From the IMG/VR virus record IMGVR_UViG_2617270980_000005: 5,563 nt of DNA. One strand, 5' to 3'. Shown here one piece after another: positions 1,466 through 5,563 of the stretch. Source of the DNA: a virus (Duplodnaviria; Heunggongvirae; Uroviricota; Caudoviricetes). Made by a program: the position numbers and the translations under genes. Numbering within the stretch: position 1 is the first letter of the stretch; the number at the start of each line of letters is the position of its first letter. The notes under the pieces are model-generated. The model ran no database searches, had not been told where the DNA came from, and was given only the letters and a program-made list of their open reading frames with translations.

Positions 1466-1967
1466 AATTCCATCCAGCTTTTTGTTGGTATTGCTGTCGA
1501 TACGCAAGCTTGAAAGCAATTGCTTTTTCTATAAGTTCGTCAGTTTCACGATCTACAACGGCAGGATCTGCAAAAAGCAGTCCGGACTCCACCACATCGC
1601 CATATTCTTTATTTAACCCAGCGATCATGTACGTAATGCTCTTTCCGTCACTAATTTCACGATACAACCTGAAATCACTAATCCGGATAGCCTCCATAAT
1701 TGCAGGCACTAGCGCTGTGAACTTTTCACGCTTATCCCTGGTGTCGATAGCCTTCCAGCGTTCAAATATCTTCACTCGATTAACGCTAAGCGCTCGCTGA
1801 TCAACCGCGCCACCTTCATATGTGACACGCTGAACATCGATGTTCGGGCGCTCTTTCAAAGCCCAGAATGCTTCAGTGATTAATATCGTCGCCTGCTCCT
1901 GTGTCATTCCTGGTCGACATATCCAGGCATCCAGAGCCTCACGAGCCTGTTCAGGAGTGATTTTCAT
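1446..1967 (-). CDS. hypothetical prophage early protein, 173 aa, in the cII position between the cro-like gene and the replication initiator
   Basis: ATG at 1967-1965; overlaps the dicC 3' end by 17 bp and the initiator start by 20 bp (compact operon). Protein MKITPEQAREALDAWICRPGMTQEQATILITEAFWALKERPNIDVQRV… looks globular and charged-balanced. Likely the intact counterpart of the decayed ydfX/ydfW region of K-12 Qin (from memory, unverified). Confidence 0.7.
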   Translation of the reverse strand: MKITPEQAREALDAWICRPGMTQEQATILITEAFWALKERPNIDVQRVTYEGGAVDQRALSVNRVKIFERWKAIDTRDKREKFTALVPAIMEAIRISDFRLYREISDGKSITYMIAGLNKEYGDVVESGLLFADPAVVDRETDELIEKAIAFKLAYRQQYQQKAGWNYEPSFC

Positions 1968-2181
1968 TGTTCAACCGCCCCGCCCGCTTCGTCTTACGAT
2001 ATTCGTCATAAACTTTGGGATCATACTGAAGCTCCCCGCCAGATGCCTCCTGTAGACGCATCGCGCGACCTTCGGGAACTAAATCCCCTTTCCAGCTATA
2101 AAGCGAAGCCAAACGAATACCTGCTGCTTGTGCAAGTTTTGTTTTTGAACCGAAATACAAAAGAGCGTCAGTTTTAAGCAT
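1951..2181 (-). CDS. dicC: DicC, Cro-like HTH regulator of the Qin-type immunity switch (76 aa)
   Basis: ATG at 2181-2179 with AAGG 7-8 nt upstream on the minus strand; protein MLKTDALLYFGSKTKLAQAAGIRLASLYSWKGDLVPEGRAMRLQEASGG… matches remembered DicC; divergent from dicA. Confidence 0.9.
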   Translation of the reverse strand: MLKTDALLYFGSKTKLAQAAGIRLASLYSWKGDLVPEGRAMRLQEASGGELQYDPKVYDEYRKTKRAGRLNNENHS

Positions 2182-2264
2182 TTAAAACACCTTAGATGTT
2201 AGTCATGGCTAACAAAATAGATGTTAACAAAAACATAGTCAATACGATTTAGCATTAGCTAACT
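2182..2264. promoter_or_regulatory. divergent dicC/dicA promoter-operator region with three dyad-symmetric candidate operator sites
   Basis: Dyads TGTTAGtcatggCTAACA (2197-2214), ATGTTaacaaaAACAT (2221-2236), TTAGCattaGCTAA (2249-2262). Candidate PdicC on the minus strand: -35 TTGACT (complement of 2237-2242), 17-bp spacer, -10 TATTTT (complement of 2214-2219). The second dyad sits in the spacer and the first overlaps the -10/+1 region. Confidence 0.6.
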
Positions 2265-2672
2265 ATGGATACAAAAAATTTAACCATCGGCGAACGCATT
2301 AGGTATCGTCGGAAAAACCTCAAACACACCCAAAGGTCTCTTGCTAAAGCCCTGAAAATCTCCCATGTGTCTGTATCACAATGGGAACGGGATGATAGTG
2401 AACCTACAGGGAAGAACCTTTTTGCCCTCAGCAAAGTATTGCAATGCTCACCAACATGGATTCTATTTGGCGATGAAGACAAGCAACCAACACCACCTGT
2501 TGAGAAGCCGGTTGCCTTAGCCCCCAAAGAACTAGAGCTCCTTGAGCTGTTTAATGCACTGCCAGAATCAGAACAGGATACCCAGCTCGCCGAAATGCGA
2601 GCTCGAGTAAAAAATTTCAATAAACTCTTTGAAGAATTACTAAAAGCCCGTCAGCGGACAAATAAAAGATAA
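2265..2672 (+). CDS. dicA: DicA, XRE/CI-family HTH repressor of the dicB operon (135 aa)
   Basis: Protein MDTKNLTIGERIRYRRKNLKHTQRSLAKALKISHVSVSQWERDDSEPTGKNLFALSKVLQCSPTWILFGDEDKQ…KARQRTNKR matches remembered DicA essentially full length; N-terminal HTH; divergent from dicC. Confidence 0.95.
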   Translation: MDTKNLTIGERIRYRRKNLKHTQRSLAKALKISHVSVSQWERDDSEPTGKNLFALSKVLQCSPTWILFGDEDKQPTPPVEKPVALAPKELELLELFNALPESEQDTQLAEMRARVKNFNKLFEELLKARQRTNKR

Positions 2673-2700
2673 CATCATCAATGAGTTATCTTTTATTATA
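2664..2700 (+). terminator. weak candidate intrinsic terminator overlapping the dicA stop
   Basis: Inverted repeat AAAAGATAAC (2664-2673) / GTTATCTTTT (2685-2694) with an 11-nt loop, followed by ATTATAT. The stem is AT-rich, so termination efficiency is doubtful. Confidence 0.3.
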
Positions 2701-2706
2701 TCAATT

Positions 2707-2762
2707 ATGTTAGCCATAACATACAAAATCACTTGACCAATATGTTAGTTATGACTAATCTT
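2707..2762 (+). promoter_or_regulatory. candidate dicB-operon promoter (PdicB) with two operator-like dyads
   Basis: -35 TTGACC (2734-2739), 16-bp spacer, -10 TAATCT (2756-2761). Dyads ATGTTAgccaTAACAT (2707-2722) and TTAGTtatgACTAA (2745-2758) share half-sites with the dicA/dicC intergenic dyads; the second lies between -35 and -10. Confidence 0.55.
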
Positions 2763-2838
2763 GTTTACATCAACACACCGCACGGTGTTCTCAGCAAACA
2801 GTTCCGCCACCCCGGCGTTAAGGGGAAATGAGGTCAGC

Positions 2839-2994
2839 ATGGATACTATCGATCTTGGCAACAGCGAATCTCTGGTATGTGGCGTGTTCCCCAATCAGGA
2901 CGGCACGTTCACCGCGATGACGTATACCAAAAGCAAAACGTTTAAAACCGAAAATGGTGCCCGTCGCTGGCTGGAAAGAAACTCAGGTGAGTGA
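2839..2994 (+). CDS. ydfA: YdfA-like small protein (51 aa), first gene of the dicB operon
   Basis: ATG 2839 preceded by GAGG (AAATGAGGTCAGC ATG); protein MDTIDLGNSESLVCGVFPNQDGTFTAMTYTKSKTFKTENGARRWLERNSGE matches remembered YdfA length and sequence. The track ORF start at 2761 is an upstream in-frame TTG without RBS. Confidence 0.85.
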   Translation: MDTIDLGNSESLVCGVFPNQDGTFTAMTYTKSKTFKTENGARRWLERNSGE

Positions 2995-2995
2995 T

Positions 2996-3571
2996 ATGGA
3001 TTTCGACACAATCATGGAAAAGGCTTACGAAGAATACTTCGAAGGCCTTGCCGAAGGCGAAGAAGCTCTCAGCTTCAGTGAGTTTAAACAGGCACTCAGA
3101 ATAAGAATGTGCTCTCACAATGACGCGGAGCACAAATATGAGAAGCAAAATCAGACCGCAGAAAATTTTGTTCTGGAACCCGGAGAAACGCTTTTCAAAA
3201 TTCCCGTTACGTGCCCCATTTGCGGTTTTACATCAGAAGAACTTGACGACTCCTGTAACAATCAGGAAACAACCAAGTATGTCGAAGATGATACCGAGTG
3301 CGCACGAAGAACGATTATATCCACGAGTCCAAACTCCAGGACCAATAAATCTCACCTTGAGAGGGTAATTAATCCACTCCCCCAAACCAATAAAAAAGAT
3401 GCCGGAGGACAAAAAACCCAATGGAACAACGGGATATCTGTCAAAAAAAGACGTTCCATTAAAGACAAACAACGCAGCGCCAACAACTGTAAGCGCTTTA
3501 TACCAGTAATCAATTTTCATGTTCTTAAGCGGATTTATTGGTGGTTGCGACATTGCTTAATGAATCCTTAA
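2996..3571 (+). CDS. ydfB: YdfB-like protein, here as an extended 191-codon frame (acidic N-terminal region, CPICG..C motif); 3' extent uncertain
   Basis: ATG 2996 with AGGTGAG Shine-Dalgarno, start coupled to the ydfA stop (TGAtATG). N-terminal ~105 aa look protein-like (MDFDTIMEKAYEEYFEGLAEGEEALSFSEFKQAL…VTCPICGFTSEELDDSC…). The C-terminal half is low-complexity K/N/R/S-rich with rare Arg/Ile codons and is overlapped by an alternative + frame (3138-3368) and a minus-strand ORF (3233-3553), so the true coding end is unresolved. Confidence 0.5.
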   Translation: MDFDTIMEKAYEEYFEGLAEGEEALSFSEFKQALRIRMCSHNDAEHKYEKQNQTAENFVLEPGETLFKIPVTCPICGFTSEELDDSCNNQETTKYVEDDTECARRTIISTSPNSRTNKSHLERVINPLPQTNKKDAGGQKTQWNNGISVKKRRSIKDKQRSANNCKRFIPVINFHVLKRIYWWLRHCLMNP

Positions 3572-3830
3572 AACTGTGGTGATTTTAAGGATACCACCTC
3601 GCCTGACGTGGTTAAAAGCAGGCACACAACACGAAAGCGCACGGCGAAGTTCGTCTCACTGTACGGTGTCGTTAAATTTAATTCGACCGTGCGCTTCCGG
3701 TTGTGGCAACCCGCGAAATGGCGCGGCGGTAAGTATGGCGGGGTTATTCCTTCCCCGTTGAGGACACCGAGTTGTCAGGTTGACCATACGCTTAAGTGAC
3801 AACCCCGCTGCAACGCCCTCTGTTATCAAT

Positions 3831-3883
3831 TTTCTGGTGACGTTTGGCGGTATCAGTTTTACTCCGTGACTGCTCTGCCGCCG
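3831..3883 (+). ncRNA. dicF: DicF small regulatory RNA (about 53 nt)
   Basis: TTTCTGGTGACGTTTGGCGGTATCAGTTTTACTCCGTGACTGCTCTGCCGCCG matches the remembered DicF sequence nearly base for base; located between the ydfB/ydfC region and dicB as in the Qin dicB operon; followed by a T5 run. Confidence 0.9.
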
Positions 3884-3888
3884 TTTTT
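3846..3888 (+). terminator. candidate intrinsic terminator forming the DicF 3' end
   Basis: GGCGG (3846-3850) pairs with CCGCC (3878-3882) enclosing an inner CAGT/ACTG helix, followed by GTTTTT (3883-3888). The stem is imperfect, hence moderate confidence. Confidence 0.45.
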
Positions 3889-4057
3889 AAAGTGAATTTT
3901 GTGATGCGGTGAATGCGGCTAAGCGCACGCGGAACAGTTAAAACCAAATACAGTGTTATGGGTGGATTCTCTGTATCCGGCGTTAATTGTTAACTGGTTA
4001 ACGTCACCTGGAGGCACCAGGCACTGCATCACAAAATTCATTGTTGAGGACGCGATA

Positions 4058-4246
4058 ATGAAAACGTTATTACCAAACGTTAATACGTCTGAAGGTTGTT
4101 TTGAAATTGGTGTCACTATCAGTAACCCTGTATTTACTGAAGATGCCATTAACAAGAGAAAACAAGAACGGGAGCTATTAAATAAAATATGCATTGTTTC
4201 AATGCTGGCTCGTTTACGTCTGATGCCAAAAGGATGTGCACAATGA
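4058..4246 (+). CDS. dicB: DicB, cell-division inhibitor (62 aa)
   Basis: ATG 4058 with GAGGA 9 nt upstream; protein MKTLLPNVNTSEGCFEIGVTISNPVFTEDAINKRKQERELLNKICIVSMLARLRLMPKGCAQ matches remembered DicB. The longer 97-aa track ORF (3953) is an in-frame 5' extension without RBS. Confidence 0.95.
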   Translation: MKTLLPNVNTSEGCFEIGVTISNPVFTEDAINKRKQERELLNKICIVSMLARLRLMPKGCAQ

Positions 4247-4434
4247 ATTCAGCATTTGCGCTTGTTCTGACAGTTTTTCTTGTTTCCGGAGAGCCAGTTG
4301 ATATTGCAGTCAGTGTTCACAGGACAATGCAGGAGTGTATGACTGCAGCAACCGAACAGAAAATTCCCGGTAACTGTTACCCGGTCGATAAAGTTATTCA
4401 CCAGGATAATATCGAAATCCCGGCAGGTCTTTAA
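4243..4434 (+). CDS. ydfD: YdfD, small prophage lysis protein with N-terminal hydrophobic segment (63 aa)
   Basis: ATG 4243 overlaps the dicB stop (ATGA); AAGGA 9 nt upstream; protein MNSAFALVLTVFLVSGEPVDIAVSVHRTMQECMTAATEQKIPGNCYPVDKVIHQDNIEIPAGL. Confidence 0.9.
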   Translation: MNSAFALVLTVFLVSGEPVDIAVSVHRTMQECMTAATEQKIPGNCYPVDKVIHQDNIEIPAGL

Positions 4435-4527
4435 AACAGTTCCGTAATAAATATCCGGTTTCATTCTTATATGCCAGCAATGGCAGGGATTTGTTCATCC
4501 TTAAATCTGTCATGAGGTTAAAACAAA

Positions 4528-5563
4528 ATGAGTAAAGTCTTTATTTGCGCCGCTATTCCTGACGAACTGGCAACAAGGGAAGAAGGCGCTGTGGCTGTAG
4601 CCACAGCCATTGAAGCTGGCGACGAACGCCGTGCTCGAGCAAAATTTCACTGGCAGTTCCTGGAACATTATCCGGCTGCTCAGGACTGCGCTTATAAATT
4701 TATTGTCTGCGAGGATAAACCTGGCATACCCCGCCCTGCCCTCGATTCATGGGATGCTGAATATATGCAGGAAAACCGCTGGGATGAGGAGTCTGCTTCT
4801 TTTGTCCCGGTTGAGACTGAATCCGATCCGATGAACGTCACTTTTGACAAGCTGGCCCCTGAAGTACAGAACGCTGTCATGGTTAAGTTCGACACATGTG
4901 AAAACATCACCGTTGATATGGTTATTAGCGCACAGGAATTGTTGCAGGAAGACATGGCAACATTCGACGGACATATCGTTGAAGCGTTGATGAAAATGCC
5001 AGAAGTTAACGCCATGTATCCGGAGCTTAAGTTGCACGCCATTGGGTGGGTTAAGCATAAATGTATTCCTGGTGCTAAATGGCCCGAAATTCAGGCAGAG
5101 ATGCGCATCTGGAAAAAACGTCGCGAAGGTGAACGCAAGGAAACCGGAAAATACACGTCTGTTGTTGATCTCGCCCGCGCCAAAGCCAATCAACAGTACA
5201 CTGAAAATTCAACAGGAAAAATCAGCCCGGTCATTGCTGCCATTCATCGCGAATACAAGCAGACATGGAAAACACTGGATGACGAACTGGCCTACGCTCT
5301 CTGGCCTGGTGATGTAGATGCCGGAAACATTGACAGCAGCATCCATCGCTGGGCAAAAAATGAAGTTATCGACAACGACCGCGAAGACTGGAAGCGTATC
5401 TCGGCATCAATGCGCAAACAGCCTGATGCCCTTCGCTACGACCGCCAGACTATTTTTGGCCTTGTCCGTGAACGTCCGATCGACATTCACAAAGACCCTG
5501 TGGCACTGAACAAATACATTACTGAATACCTGACTACAAAGGGCGTGTTTGAAGATGAAGGAA
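4528..5563 (+). CDS. ydfE: YdfE-like prophage protein, at least 345 aa, 3' end beyond the window; function unknown
   Basis: ATG 4528 with GAGG upstream (CATGAGGTTAAAACAAA ATG). I translated the frame codon by codon to position 5563 with no stop (MSKVFICAAIPDELATREEGAVAVATAIEAGDERRARAKFHWQFLEHYPAAQDCAYKF…KGVFEDEG). It is missing from the ORF track only because it has no stop in the window. N-terminus matches what I recall of YdfE. Confidence 0.85.
   Translation, partial: MSKVFICAAIPDELATREEGAVAVATAIEAGDERRARAKFHWQFLEHYPAAQDCAYKFIVCEDKPGIPRPALDSWDAEYMQENRWDEESASFVPVETESDPMNVTFDKLAPEVQNAVMVKFDTCENITVDMVISAQELLQEDMATFDGHIVEALMKMPEVNAMYPELKLHAIGWVKHKCIPGAKWPEIQAEMRIWKKRREGERKETGKYTSVVDLARAKANQQYTENSTGKISPVIAAIHREYKQTWKTLDDELAYALWPGDVDAGNIDSSIHRWAKNEVIDNDREDWKRISASMRKQPDALRYDRQTIFGLVRERPIDIHKDPVALNKYITEYLTTKGVFEDEG

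Follow-up and report, generated by a model that had tools for sequence, protein, structure and literature searches.

Does a reading frame on the minus strand of an early-left operon encode a protein of its own, or is it left open only by the coding frame opposite it? The question is raised by the window, a stretch of 5,563 nucleotides from a virus of the Caudoviricetes (IMG/VR record IMGVR_UViG_2617270980_000005). A small membrane protein with three helices had been proposed here, encoded antisense in the dicB (early-left) operon, and this main reading is supported by purifying selection, by homologues and by the promoter region. Position and size of the frame were reproduced from the ORF list: it starts with the ATG at 3553 and encodes 106 residues, or 95 if an in-frame Met at codon 12 is used. 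The frame was thought to lie opposite ydfB and ydfC. It is antisense to a ydfB-type ORF (2954/2996-3571), but the window has no ydfC. We refer to the two frames as X and Y.

3233..3553, minus strand: gene X (name used here), 106-aa coding sequence, based on the ORF list, codon-position substitutions, homologues and helices
3518..3520, minus strand: Met-12 of X, in frame (ATG 3520-3518), possible alternative product of 95 aa
2996..3571, plus strand: ORF Y, 191 aa from the ydfB-type ATG (phrog_35040, RefSeq WP_000344958.1)

Coding status of gene X and of the opposite frame

Eight ORFs of at least 100 aa are present in the window, and three of the eight are shadows of known genes:

2255-2620: shadow ORF antisense to dicA (ORF list)
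4692-5042: shadow ORF antisense to the exonuclease gene (ORF list)
4747-5193: shadow ORF antisense to the exonuclease gene (ORF list)

Because of these three, the length of X alone is no better than chance, and its significance therefore rests on conservation and not on the ORF itself. The same three shadows speak for the view that X is no gene at all, merely an open shadow of Y that is hydrophobic by virtue of the K/E/N codons of Y. Furthermore, the codons of X and Y are in exact register, and this arrangement yields the longest shadow ORFs, X has no conserved Shine-Dalgarno sequence, and gene callers and RefSeq mostly choose Y (the Y cluster has 1798 members, the two largest X clusters 141 and 137). 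The substitution pattern argues against this view. Substitutions per X codon position 1/2/3 were 12/7/34 between the window and L011, 9/10/23 between the window and L012 and 26/18/51 between L003 and L006, and are thus concentrated at X position 3, equivalent to position 1 in Y. Near-identical pairs differ by synonymous changes at X position 3 only. In a pair comparison 18 residues were changed in X versus 42 in the opposite frame, about twice as many, and X indels are whole codons located in loops. On the other strand, the Y tail that overlaps X has no amino-acid constraint at 4-fold sites and no predicted fold; AlphaFold gave pLDDT <50 for residues 41-176 and was confident for the YdfB-like N-terminus only, a model that is weak evidence because its alignment was shallow. 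Finally, hundreds of X homologues face an antisense frame with 3-17 stops.

A comparison of minus- and plus-frame conservation, suggested with the original prediction, came out in favor of X. In 7 of 171 loci (5 alleles) the sense frame is interrupted while X is intact, the set having been selected for an intact 106-aa X; broken X alleles occur elsewhere (L029; P0025). Stops in X with a preserved sense frame were not the pattern among these 171 loci. Judged from these comparisons, X is a genuine protein-coding gene under purifying selection in the minus frame. The shadow explanation, which the original prediction had kept as an equal alternative, is effectively refuted on comparative grounds by the position-3 substitutions and by the homologues with a closed antisense frame, and we consider it extremely improbable.

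In alignments, codon 12 of X is Met throughout the enterobacterial prophage clade, whereas most of the distant homologues have Leu. We saw no Shine-Dalgarno sequence in front of Met-12, and it is kept in the prophage clade only. By analogy with sieB/esc (P22 esc annotation) it is a possible second start.

The sense ORF carries signals of its own. The ATG of Y is coupled to the ydfA stop, and the longest version starts at 2954 and comprises 205 aa. Over its last ~112 codons, Y is exactly complementary and antiparallel to X. Directly 5' of the overlap lies a conserved motif:

3182..3232, plus strand: Y motif G-E-x-(L/I)-(F/C)-x-I-P-x-x-C-P-(I/V)-C-G-F-x, outside X

In this motif the residues are kept, and variation at third positions is synonymous in the plus frame (Pro codons CCC/CCG/CCA/CCT, Gly codons GGT/GGA, Cys codons TGC/TGT), with differences per position of, for example, 5/4/11 and 6/6/13. 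The IPxxCPxCGF region thus shows what looks like a plus-frame coding signature, by which Y would be no mere shadow. Across X the Y frame is open in every enterobacterial lineage. Stop-complement codons are avoided in X: TTA/CTA/TCA were found in 0/73 cases versus 76/246 for other A-ending codons (p = 1e-10). By this measure, the Y frame across X is kept stop-free by selection that acts as specific avoidance of stop-complement codons. A two-frame selection test gave a clear result for X, and for Y a signature only in the non-overlapping motif and in stop-complement avoidance, the tail being unconstrained. Homologues of Y, in the form of a CPxCGF protein without X, were not found outside the clade. 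Selection on the Y frame was unexpected and had not been foreseen in the original prediction.

A widespread family of predicted membrane proteins

A profile search recovered 347 cluster representatives (50% identity) at E <=1e-3, nearly all of 100-115 aa, from many bacterial orders in the Proteobacteria and beyond. Homologues of 106 aa and 87, 83, 57 and 50% identity come from Escherichia, metagenomic prophages and Yersinia. Others, of 102-113 aa and 32-45% identity, are found in Pseudomonas, Shewanella, Marinobacter, Herminiimonas, Desulfobacteraceae, Polyangia and others. The antisense frames of these distant homologues are the ones closed by stops (the G+C-rich exceptions L015 and truncated L027 have none), and the X family is therefore independent of the sense ORF. 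Family motifs are NPL, (I/L)DYWYK, G(L/I)GEWxNHP(L)Q, R81, G87, D91 and G94. X is a full-length member of the family by its length, which lies within ~100-115 aa, by these motifs, including R/G/D in helix 3, and by its three hydrophobic helices. It shares length, motifs and helix pattern with Burkholderia phage Bcep176 gp33, an unannotated gene of phage mEp390 and WP_247162388.1. Searches of Pfam, NCBIfam, PHROGs and PADLOC with X and 24 family members gave no informative match; the family is widespread and covered by no curated library.

The enterobacterial prophage clade differs from the rest of the family by fewer Leu and more Phe residues, by Met at position 12, by the absence of TTA/CTA/TCA codons and by the presence of the sieB-type promoter described below. 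The window itself carries an unusual allele within the GEWxNHP motif:

3365..3367, minus strand: codon 63 of X, TAC (Tyr) in the window, near-invariant His in the family (GEWINHP)

Tyr-63 occurs only in the window and in the identical L002, and the His-63 allele in 126 loci. The H63Y change in a near-invariant motif may impair the function of the window's X.

The three hydrophobic segments that had been read from the sequence were borne out by Kyte-Doolittle analysis (residues 20-38, 43-62 and 85-103) and by AlphaFold2, which placed helices at 17-33, 42-62 and 85-105 with moderate confidence (mean pLDDT 68). Three K/R residues lie in the N-terminus and four in the loop 63-84, and the positive-inside rule therefore predicts an N-in/C-out orientation. 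The topology prediction called for at the outset thus describes X as an inner-membrane protein with three transmembrane helices, oriented N-in/C-out, and the invariant DYWYK, GEWxNHP and R81 are predicted to lie at the cytoplasmic face. Foldseek searches of X against BFVD and PDB returned only generic three-helix matches (E >0.3), and a sequence profile search of PDB with the X family gave no match.

Distant members are located in assorted accessory regions that are not recognizable as prophages, with DUF5677, DUF4926, DUF1198 and Fic genes among their neighbors, and the neighbor scan revealed no conserved partner gene. Since these members lie outside prophages, the function of the family is not necessarily phage exclusion.

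The sieB-type promoter region and the mosaic cassette

Comparison with the Qin prophage of K-12 by blastn confined homology to 1688-3096 and 3614-5050. The intervening stretch forms a cassette, and X is preceded by a conserved promoter region:

3097..3613, no strand assigned: mosaic cassette comprising X, the Y motif and the greater part of the X promoter region (blastn vs K-12 Qin)
3554..3630, minus strand: sieB-type promoter region, kept in all X lineages; the same element lies upstream of lambda sieB
3623-3619 to 3597-3593, minus strand: conserved element GCCTG...CCAC...CAGGC...GTGGT, in all X lineages
3592-3583 and 3573-3564, minus strand: inverted repeat ATCCTTAAAA / TTTTAAGGAT in the promoter region of X
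3566-3561, minus strand: -10-like hexamer GATTCA, ending 7 nt before the A of the X ATG

In place of the cassette, K-12 Qin has ydfC and the 3' end of ydfB (K-12 annotation), with no X remnants. The cassette was found in 805 of 5426 complete E. coli genomes (~15%); carriers include E. coli E24377A, T309.Ta3 and phage HannyBb. In the RefSeq records inspected this conserved gene was missed: the locus is left blank, called a truncated 'ydfB pseudogene' or annotated on the opposite strand. No family library has it. In every diverged prophage X lies between a cI-like repressor gene and the early-left genes, in opposite orientation to both, and in the enterobacterial lineages examined it is always within the prophage immunity region. 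As a separate observation, ydfC of L113 is located downstream of the cassette.

The ~75 nt 5' of X are conserved in all lineages, even where the flanks are unrelated, and match the sequence directly upstream of sieB in lambda (TTGTGCCTGTCTTTTAACCACATCAGGCTCGGTGGT) and P22. The promoter-element pattern matches every X locus and also lambda. In the curated P22 record a 'sieB promoter' (-35/-10) and a mapped 'sieB RNA start site' are annotated just downstream of the conserved element. The distance from GTGGT to the -10-like hexamer is 31-35 nt at X loci and 33 nt in P22 and lambda. These alignments show that the promoter region of X is homologous to that of sieB in lambda and P22, and that X is a mosaic cassette in the sieB slot of a Qin-like lambdoid prophage. 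The slot follows the repressor gene, which is dicA in the window and cI in other cases, is antisense to the early-left operon and lies behind this promoter region.

This homology changes how the start of X is read. AAGGA, which had been taken as a weak ribosome binding site, is ACGGA, TCGGA or AAAGA in other lineages and was not kept as a Shine-Dalgarno sequence; instead it aligns with the sieB -10 box. At X loci the ATG follows the -10-like hexamer by 7-10 nt. We therefore predict a leaderless or nearly leaderless X mRNA, with a start that is placed by alignment to the mapped P22 sieB start, and this would explain the missing Shine-Dalgarno sequence. A leaderless prophage maintenance transcript is known from lambda cI expressed from P_RM, which X would resemble in being expressed in the lysogen with its ATG at or near the predicted start and no Shine-Dalgarno sequence. 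The sieB ATG differs, lying 25-30 nt farther downstream (the leader in P22 has 31 nt), whereas that of X abuts the -10 region. In the window's own clade the hexamer is GATTCA and not GATAAA, and a simple sigma-70 and terminator scan returned no promoter and nothing convincing adjoining X; promoter strength and start site are uncertain for these reasons.

In a first reading the upstream stretch was interpreted as a structured 5' UTR, with an H-type pseudoknot (GCCUG/CCAC/CAGGC/GUGG) and a hairpin of covarying pairs that sequesters the Shine-Dalgarno sequence. RNAalifold gave support for the invariant first stem only, and Rfam had no match for the stretch. We dropped the riboswitch or sequestration model because in the P22 alignment the hairpin falls into the -35/-10 interval, which precedes the X transcript. 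The covarying inverted repeat may serve as an operator or belong to an antisense RNA of the sas type; no sas promoter was identified at the X locus.

The same promoter region is also found 5' of other small ORFs in SfV and Salmonella phage 118970_sal3. The sieB promoter region of lambda and P22 may thus represent a shared expression slot with interchangeable cargo, and further exclusion candidates could be found by looking behind sieB-type promoters.

Possible roles of X and of the overlap with Y

The best overall explanation, which we hold to be probable, is that X is a real three-helix membrane gene in the sieB slot and under its promoter, with exclusion or abortive infection as the most likely function of the product. 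The prophage-expressed sieB aborts superinfecting phages (PMC10883804); its regulators are an antisense RNA, sas, and Esc, a product of the same frame (PMC12197685, PMC7067206). Like sieB of lambda, P22 and Rac, X lies near the repressor gene on the strand opposite to the early-left operon, has the homologous promoter region upstream and contains a possible in-frame internal Met. The proteins themselves are different: X has 106 aa versus 184-192 aa in SieB, hhalign of the X family against lambda SieB gave a probability of 0.4% with no sequence or profile similarity, and neither X nor the 24 family members matched Pfam, including the SieB family PF14163. Given the homology of the 75 nt upstream of X to the promoter region of sieB, X would be a non-homologous replacement of SieB. 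By analogy with sieB, it would be transcribed in the lysogen from the sieB-type promoter. As an accessory ('moron') protein of the prophage it would act at the membrane, excluding superinfecting phages or aborting their infection in the stead of SieB. As a guess from position, exclusion is the most likely function, and the slot offers in X a specific candidate for a novel effector of exclusion or abortive infection encoded by a prophage.

The slot might instead be nothing more than a lysogen-active promoter, and X a real accessory gene for host physiology, for example a modulator of envelope stress or of a membrane transporter. This would fit the distant homologues outside prophages, the absent PADLOC match and the unrelated, soluble-looking cargo that the same promoter region drives in SfV and 118970_sal3. 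However, an exclusion gene is the best-studied occupant of the slot, X is never outside the immunity region in the enterobacterial lineages examined, and neighbors of the distant homologues, such as Fic and the immunity-like DUF4926 protein, are typical of conflict islands. We regard a host-physiology role as unlikely, while giving it some weight.

Still less probable is that X is a membrane-damaging toxin or lysis-type protein, type I toxin- or holin-like, that is held in check by antisense transcription. Antisense transcription over X is likely, X is small and hydrophobic and would be fully covered by the antisense transcript, and SieB-type systems employ antisense RNA (PMC12197685). With three helices in ~105 aa X is similar to class I holins. 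Its Met codons 1 and 12 are in frame, and a holin was among the best fold matches, without significance. Type I toxins, however, are usually shorter than 60 aa, have a single transmembrane helix and are repressed by a cis-antisense RNA, and X exceeds them with 106 aa and three helices. Class I holins have three helices in an N-out/C-in orientation and are encoded in a late lysis cassette beside the endolysin; X lies in the immunity/early-left region, outside any lysis cassette, and its predicted N-in/C-out orientation is the reverse of that of lambda S105. Polar motifs at the predicted cytoplasmic face are strongly conserved, which points to a specific interaction and not to a generic pore, and family members are widely distributed as single genes that lack an evident partner.

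The overlap itself suggests a dual-use locus, a reading that we put forward tentatively and rate just short of probable: the Y frame is kept open for translation itself or, alternatively, Y is a second protein overprinted on an older gene. In the first case ribosomes would have to cross ~330 nt complementary to the lysogen-expressed X, and their passage would guard the early transcript from Rho-dependent termination or would prevent pairing with the X mRNA and RNase III cleavage. In the second, the Y protein would have CPxCGF at its head, followed by a disordered, basic tail. Gene calls of the inspected loci contained no N-like gene between the repressor gene and X, whereas N or gp24 is present in lambda and P22. 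The frames antisense to lambda sieB are closed, with 9, 4 and 15 stops, and the border marks the end of N, while X is wholly crossed by an open ORF.

Antisense overlapping pairs have been described in E. coli, such as nog1, ano, pop and other candidates (PMC9927249, PMC5960689, bioRxiv 10.1101/2020.11.18.388249), and the X/Y locus is absent from a preprint on such genes in this species. The X/Y pair resembles them: the overlap is long and antiparallel, and both strands have coding potential. It differs in that the embedded gene X is ancient and the covering frame Y derived, in that Y is open without amino-acid constraint, and in that the evidence is comparative (stop-complement avoidance, saturated lineages) and not from Ribo-seq. 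X/Y would thus be a rare comparative case, with an internal control included, of selection keeping a frame antisense to a real gene open. If the dual-use reading is true, ~15% of complete E. coli genomes carry a naturally conserved, fully embedded antiparallel locus of this kind.

Gene map of the window and the mosaic cassette

The window comes from a Qin-like lambdoid prophage of E. coli and spans its immunity and early-left region. Its sequence matches strain T309.Ta3 at 100% identity and E24377A at 99.9%. The gene map was obtained by converting the RefSeq annotation of these two genomes to window coordinates.

Annotated features of the window (RefSeq, unless stated otherwise)
500-1519, minus: O-like gene
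1446-1967, minus: ydaT-like gene
1951-2181, minus: dicC
2265-2672, plus: dicA
2839-2994, plus: ydfA
2996-3097, plus: "ydfB" fragment, flagged as an incomplete pseudogene
3098-4057: no annotation
3832-3883, plus: DicF (Rfam)
4058-4246, plus: dicB
4243-4434, plus: ydfD
from 4528, plus: exonuclease

Since this map is blank at 3098-4057, the minus-strand ORF studied here (ORF X) sits in a stretch of about 960 bp that RefSeq leaves empty. According to RefSeq, the "ydfB" pseudogene lacks its C-terminus; the frame is actually uninterrupted for 191 codons, and the full 191-aa protein (WP_000344958.1) is annotated in other RefSeq genomes. In the RefSeq E. coli records inspected, the region of ORF X was either blank or carried this plus-strand protein. 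Directly after DicF, a match to STnc100 (3881-4090, plus) extends into the start of dicB; it lies below threshold (34.7 bits against a Rfam gathering score of 47, E = 6.6e-5).

ORF X belongs to a mosaic cassette at 3097-3613, where K-12 Qin has the ydfB 3' end and ydfC instead, and K-12 matches the flanks (1688-3096 and 3614-5050) at 97-98% identity. At one compared locus (L113, 2692-3531) a 280-codon plus-frame ORF runs across the cassette and continues in frame into ydfC (MQKREPVIIAPDY...). Since this locus holds both, ydfC and the cassette are separate mosaic modules. In the prophage lineage with 57% identity in X, an 82-nt tRNA-Asn (GTT) gene directly adjoins the cassette on the early-left strand, downstream of the stop of the plus-strand ORF (L112, 2794-2875; L007, 3952-4033).

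ORF X as a coding sequence and its protein family

The ORF listing returned ORF X as originally predicted, at 3233-3553 on the minus strand with an ATG start and 106 aa. Its length proves nothing on its own, because three other ORFs in the window that reach 100 aa or more merely shadow known genes. We therefore relied on substitution patterns. Against homologues 83-87% identical in protein, nucleotide differences at X codon positions 1/2/3 were 12/7/34 and 9/10/23, and between two deep lineages 26/18/51. ORF X and the plus-strand frame covering it (ORF Y) are exactly codon-aligned, position 1 of Y being position 3 of X. In near-identical pairs the differences were confined to X position 3, changing no residue of X and two of Y; overall, 18 residue changes in X compare with 42 in Y. 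In distant homologues the codon-aligned antisense frame contains 3-17 stops (only L015 and the truncated L027, both G+C-rich, have none), and the X family therefore exists independently of any sense ORF. Judged from these comparisons, ORF X certainly codes for a protein. The alternative considered in the original prediction, a mere shadow of the sense frame, is rejected, as X position 3 takes most substitutions and the antisense frames of distant homologues carry stops.

The preferred reading, a real small three-helix membrane protein, is in turn supported by the codon-position pattern, the homologues and the predicted helices. Hydropathy recovered the three proposed hydrophobic segments (residues 20-38, 43-62 and 85-103), and AlphaFold2 modeled helices at 17-33, 42-62 and 85-105 (mean pLDDT 68). 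Basic residues cluster in the N-terminus and in the loop 63-84, a distribution that predicts an N-in/C-out topology.

Ungapped 106-aa homologues were found in metagenomic prophages (57% identity) and in Yersinia (50%), and homologues of 102-113 aa with 32-45% identity in Pseudomonas, Shewanella, Marinobacter, Herminiimonas, Reinekea, Salinimonas, Desulfobacteraceae, Polyangia and others. When 1.8 billion representative proteins were searched with a profile, 347 clusters came up at E <= 1e-3, nearly all of 100-115 aa. Of 5426 complete E. coli genomes, 805 carry the gene. Public sources name it only "hypothetical protein", and Pfam, NCBIfam, PHROGs and PADLOC hold no curated family for it. We conclude that ORF X is a member of a sizeable, never-curated family. 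Residues D15, W17, Y18, K19, G56, G58, E59, W60, P64, G87 and G94 are invariant and N7, L9, Y16, N62, H63 and R81 nearly so. At codon 63 (3365-3367, minus), where the family has His within a GEWINHP motif, the window encodes Tyr, which among the loci examined is limited to the window and the identical locus of T309.Ta3. This allele may be functionally impaired. Met-12 is kept as Met in the prophage clade only. Broken copies occur in Shigella flexneri CP182557 (L029, 4001-4282; early stop after 11 codons) and as frameshifts in a few E. coli, such as P0025, so that the gene decays in some cryptic prophages. Burkholderia phage Bcep176 gp33 (L190, 2384-2848) is a family member with an N-terminal extension of about 40 aa, and the only one in the phage collection that its deposited record annotates on the correct strand.

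An open sense frame across ORF X

The most unusual feature of the locus, and a directly testable one, is the conserved open sense frame. ORF Y covers ORF X completely on the plus strand (2954-3571, 205 aa; counted from the ydfB ATG, 2996-3571 and 191 aa). No stop interrupts the frame opposite X, at 40-45% G+C, in the window or at loci L014, L113, L011, L112 and L003/L005. Chance alone, calculated from the codon usage of neighbours or of the genome, would leave the frame open in 1-7% of cases per lineage, with a joint probability of 5e-4 to 8e-6 for the three deep lineages. At four-fold sites of conserved residues, identity between the lineages is 11-30%, just as for family members of similar divergence that lack the overlap; by this measure the lineages are effectively independent. 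Leu in X is encoded only by TTG, CTT, CTC and CTG and Ser never by TCA, yet synonymous flips occur between lineages. As an internal control, the codons whose complements are stops (TTA, CTA, TCA) were compared with other A-ending codons by Fisher test.

Use of stop-complement codons and other A-ending codons in X
Enterobacterial, five lineages: 0/73 stop-complement, 76/246 other A-ending, p = 1e-10
Enterobacterial, three deep lineages: 0/41 stop-complement, 46/147 other A-ending, p = 1.8e-6
Distant homologues: 78/182 stop-complement, 157/423 other A-ending, p = 0.92

The enterobacterial X proteins also contain fewer Leu (8-11 against 11-22) and more Phe. Furthermore, the 16-17 Y codons directly upstream of the overlap, outside X, encode a conserved motif, G-E-x-(L/I)-(F/C)-x-I-P-x-x-C-P-(I/V)-C-G-F, whose third positions vary synonymously in the plus frame, and we count this as evidence for Y translation. 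In most lineages the Y ATG precedes the overlap by 34-42 codons (a canonical start is absent from L003), and Y stops 5-12 codons beyond the ATG of X. L011 and L113 (GAGG) and L112 (AAGAG) have a good Shine-Dalgarno sequence before the Y ATG, and L005 has GAGGA at a greater distance. The window differs in that its Y frame is joined to a YdfB-like N-terminus and coupled to the ydfA stop.

Several observations speak against a functional Y tail. We did not find amino-acid constraint on it beyond that imposed by X. The tail is basic (pI 9.7) and is predicted without a fold, from a shallow alignment, Y is broken in 7 of 171 loci (5 alleles) with intact X, and L003, as noted, is without a canonical start. 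We conclude that Y is more than a shadow of X, and that the conserved thing is the openness of the frame and not the protein sequence. The odds are about even, in our view, that this openness results from selection, either for translating through this stretch or for a tail whose sequence can vary. Comparison with other phages lends support. Lambda, which has N, carries 9, 4 and 15 stops in the antisense frames of its sieB; no N-like gene was found among the called genes between repressor and X in the X-bearing prophage loci inspected. Phage mEp390 (L188) carries an X-family gene (38% identity) antisense in its early-right operon, and an open ORF crosses it. The record annotates this ORF, mEp390_039 (2956-3411, 151 aa), in place of the intact X-family ORF (...DAWYKV...GIGEWINHPLK...GIVKLF); it is either a strand misannotation or a second independent sense ORF kept open across an X-family gene.

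The sieB-type promoter region and the likely role of ORF X

In every diverged context, ORF X is flanked by a cI-like repressor gene on one side and the early-left genes on the other, and it points opposite to both. Lambda sieB has the same geometry, on the strand opposite P_L between N and ral. About 75 nt upstream of the X ATG are kept in all lineages, even amid unrelated surrounding DNA, and consist of TGCCTG..TTTA(A/T)CCAC.TCAGGC..GTGGTATCCT and then an inverted repeat. When this element was turned into a search pattern, all X loci matched, and so, unexpectedly, did lambda, at 60-85 nt before the sieB ATG; the element also precedes sieB in P22 and many relatives. The curated P22 record marks the stretch after it as "sieB promoter" with a mapped "sieB RNA start site".

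Just upstream of the promoter lies an invariant block, GCCTG..TTTA(A/T)CCAC.TCAGGC..GTGGT (window 3593-3623, minus; lambda 1398-1432; P22 1212-1246), which occurs in lambda and P22, in all X cassettes and in phages that carry other cargo. As RNA, its four pairing segments would adopt an H-type pseudoknot topology; every pair is invariant, so there is no covariation evidence for the pseudoknot. The block could be an UP element, an operator or the 3' part of an antisense RNA like sas of sieB. The inverted repeat (3564-3592, both strands) is perfect (10+10 bp, ATCCTTAAAA N9 TTTTAAGGAT) and covers the stretch from the predicted -35 to the -10 of the X promoter. Between lineages, compensatory changes occur in its upper pairs (AAAAU/GUUUU, AAAGC/GCUUU, AAAGG/CCUUU), and lambda and P22 have TTCTCG..CGAGAA at this position. 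A -10-like hexamer, GAT(A/T)(A/C)A, follows the invariant GTGGT by 31-35 nt in X loci and, in both P22 and lambda, by 33 nt. From the hexamer it is 7-10 nt to the A of the ATG in X loci, and the mapped P22 start is the ninth base after the hexamer. By this alignment the X mRNA is predicted to be leaderless or nearly so, and the AAGGA originally read as a weak Shine-Dalgarno sequence is part of the -10 region; as a Shine-Dalgarno sequence it is not conserved, other lineages having ACGGA, TCGGA or AAAGA there. Two caveats apply to this prediction: GATTCA, the hexamer of the window, is inferior to GATAAA, and a simple promoter scan saw no promoter at X.

ORF X shows no similarity to SieB (hhalign probability 0.4%) and fills the known sieB slot as a new, non-homologous gene. 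In the literature, the P22 prophage expresses sieB, which halts macromolecular synthesis midway through an infection by related phages (PMC10883804); sieB is controlled by the cis-antisense RNA sas, through which translation shifts to Esc, an in-frame truncated product (PMC12197685, PMC7067206). As slot and promoter region are common to both genes, our best guess is that ORF X may plausibly be a lysogen-expressed membrane effector of exclusion or abortive infection, drawn from position and promoter homology only. By analogy, an Esc-like internal start at Met-12 is conceivable. The guess is weakened by the uninformative fold searches, by the Tyr-63 of the window and by the setting of distant family members, which sit in assorted accessory regions beside Fic, DUF4926, DUF5677 and DUF1198 genes.

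Behind the same promoter region, SfV and Salmonella phage 118970_sal3 carry unrelated small ORFs, and the region behaves as a shared slot with interchangeable cargo. Both ORFs look soluble and are candidates for further cargo genes: the one in SfV (1577-1822) is unannotated, and the one in 118970_sal3 (about 1575-1799) is annotated with a CDS start that lies far upstream, within the promoter element.
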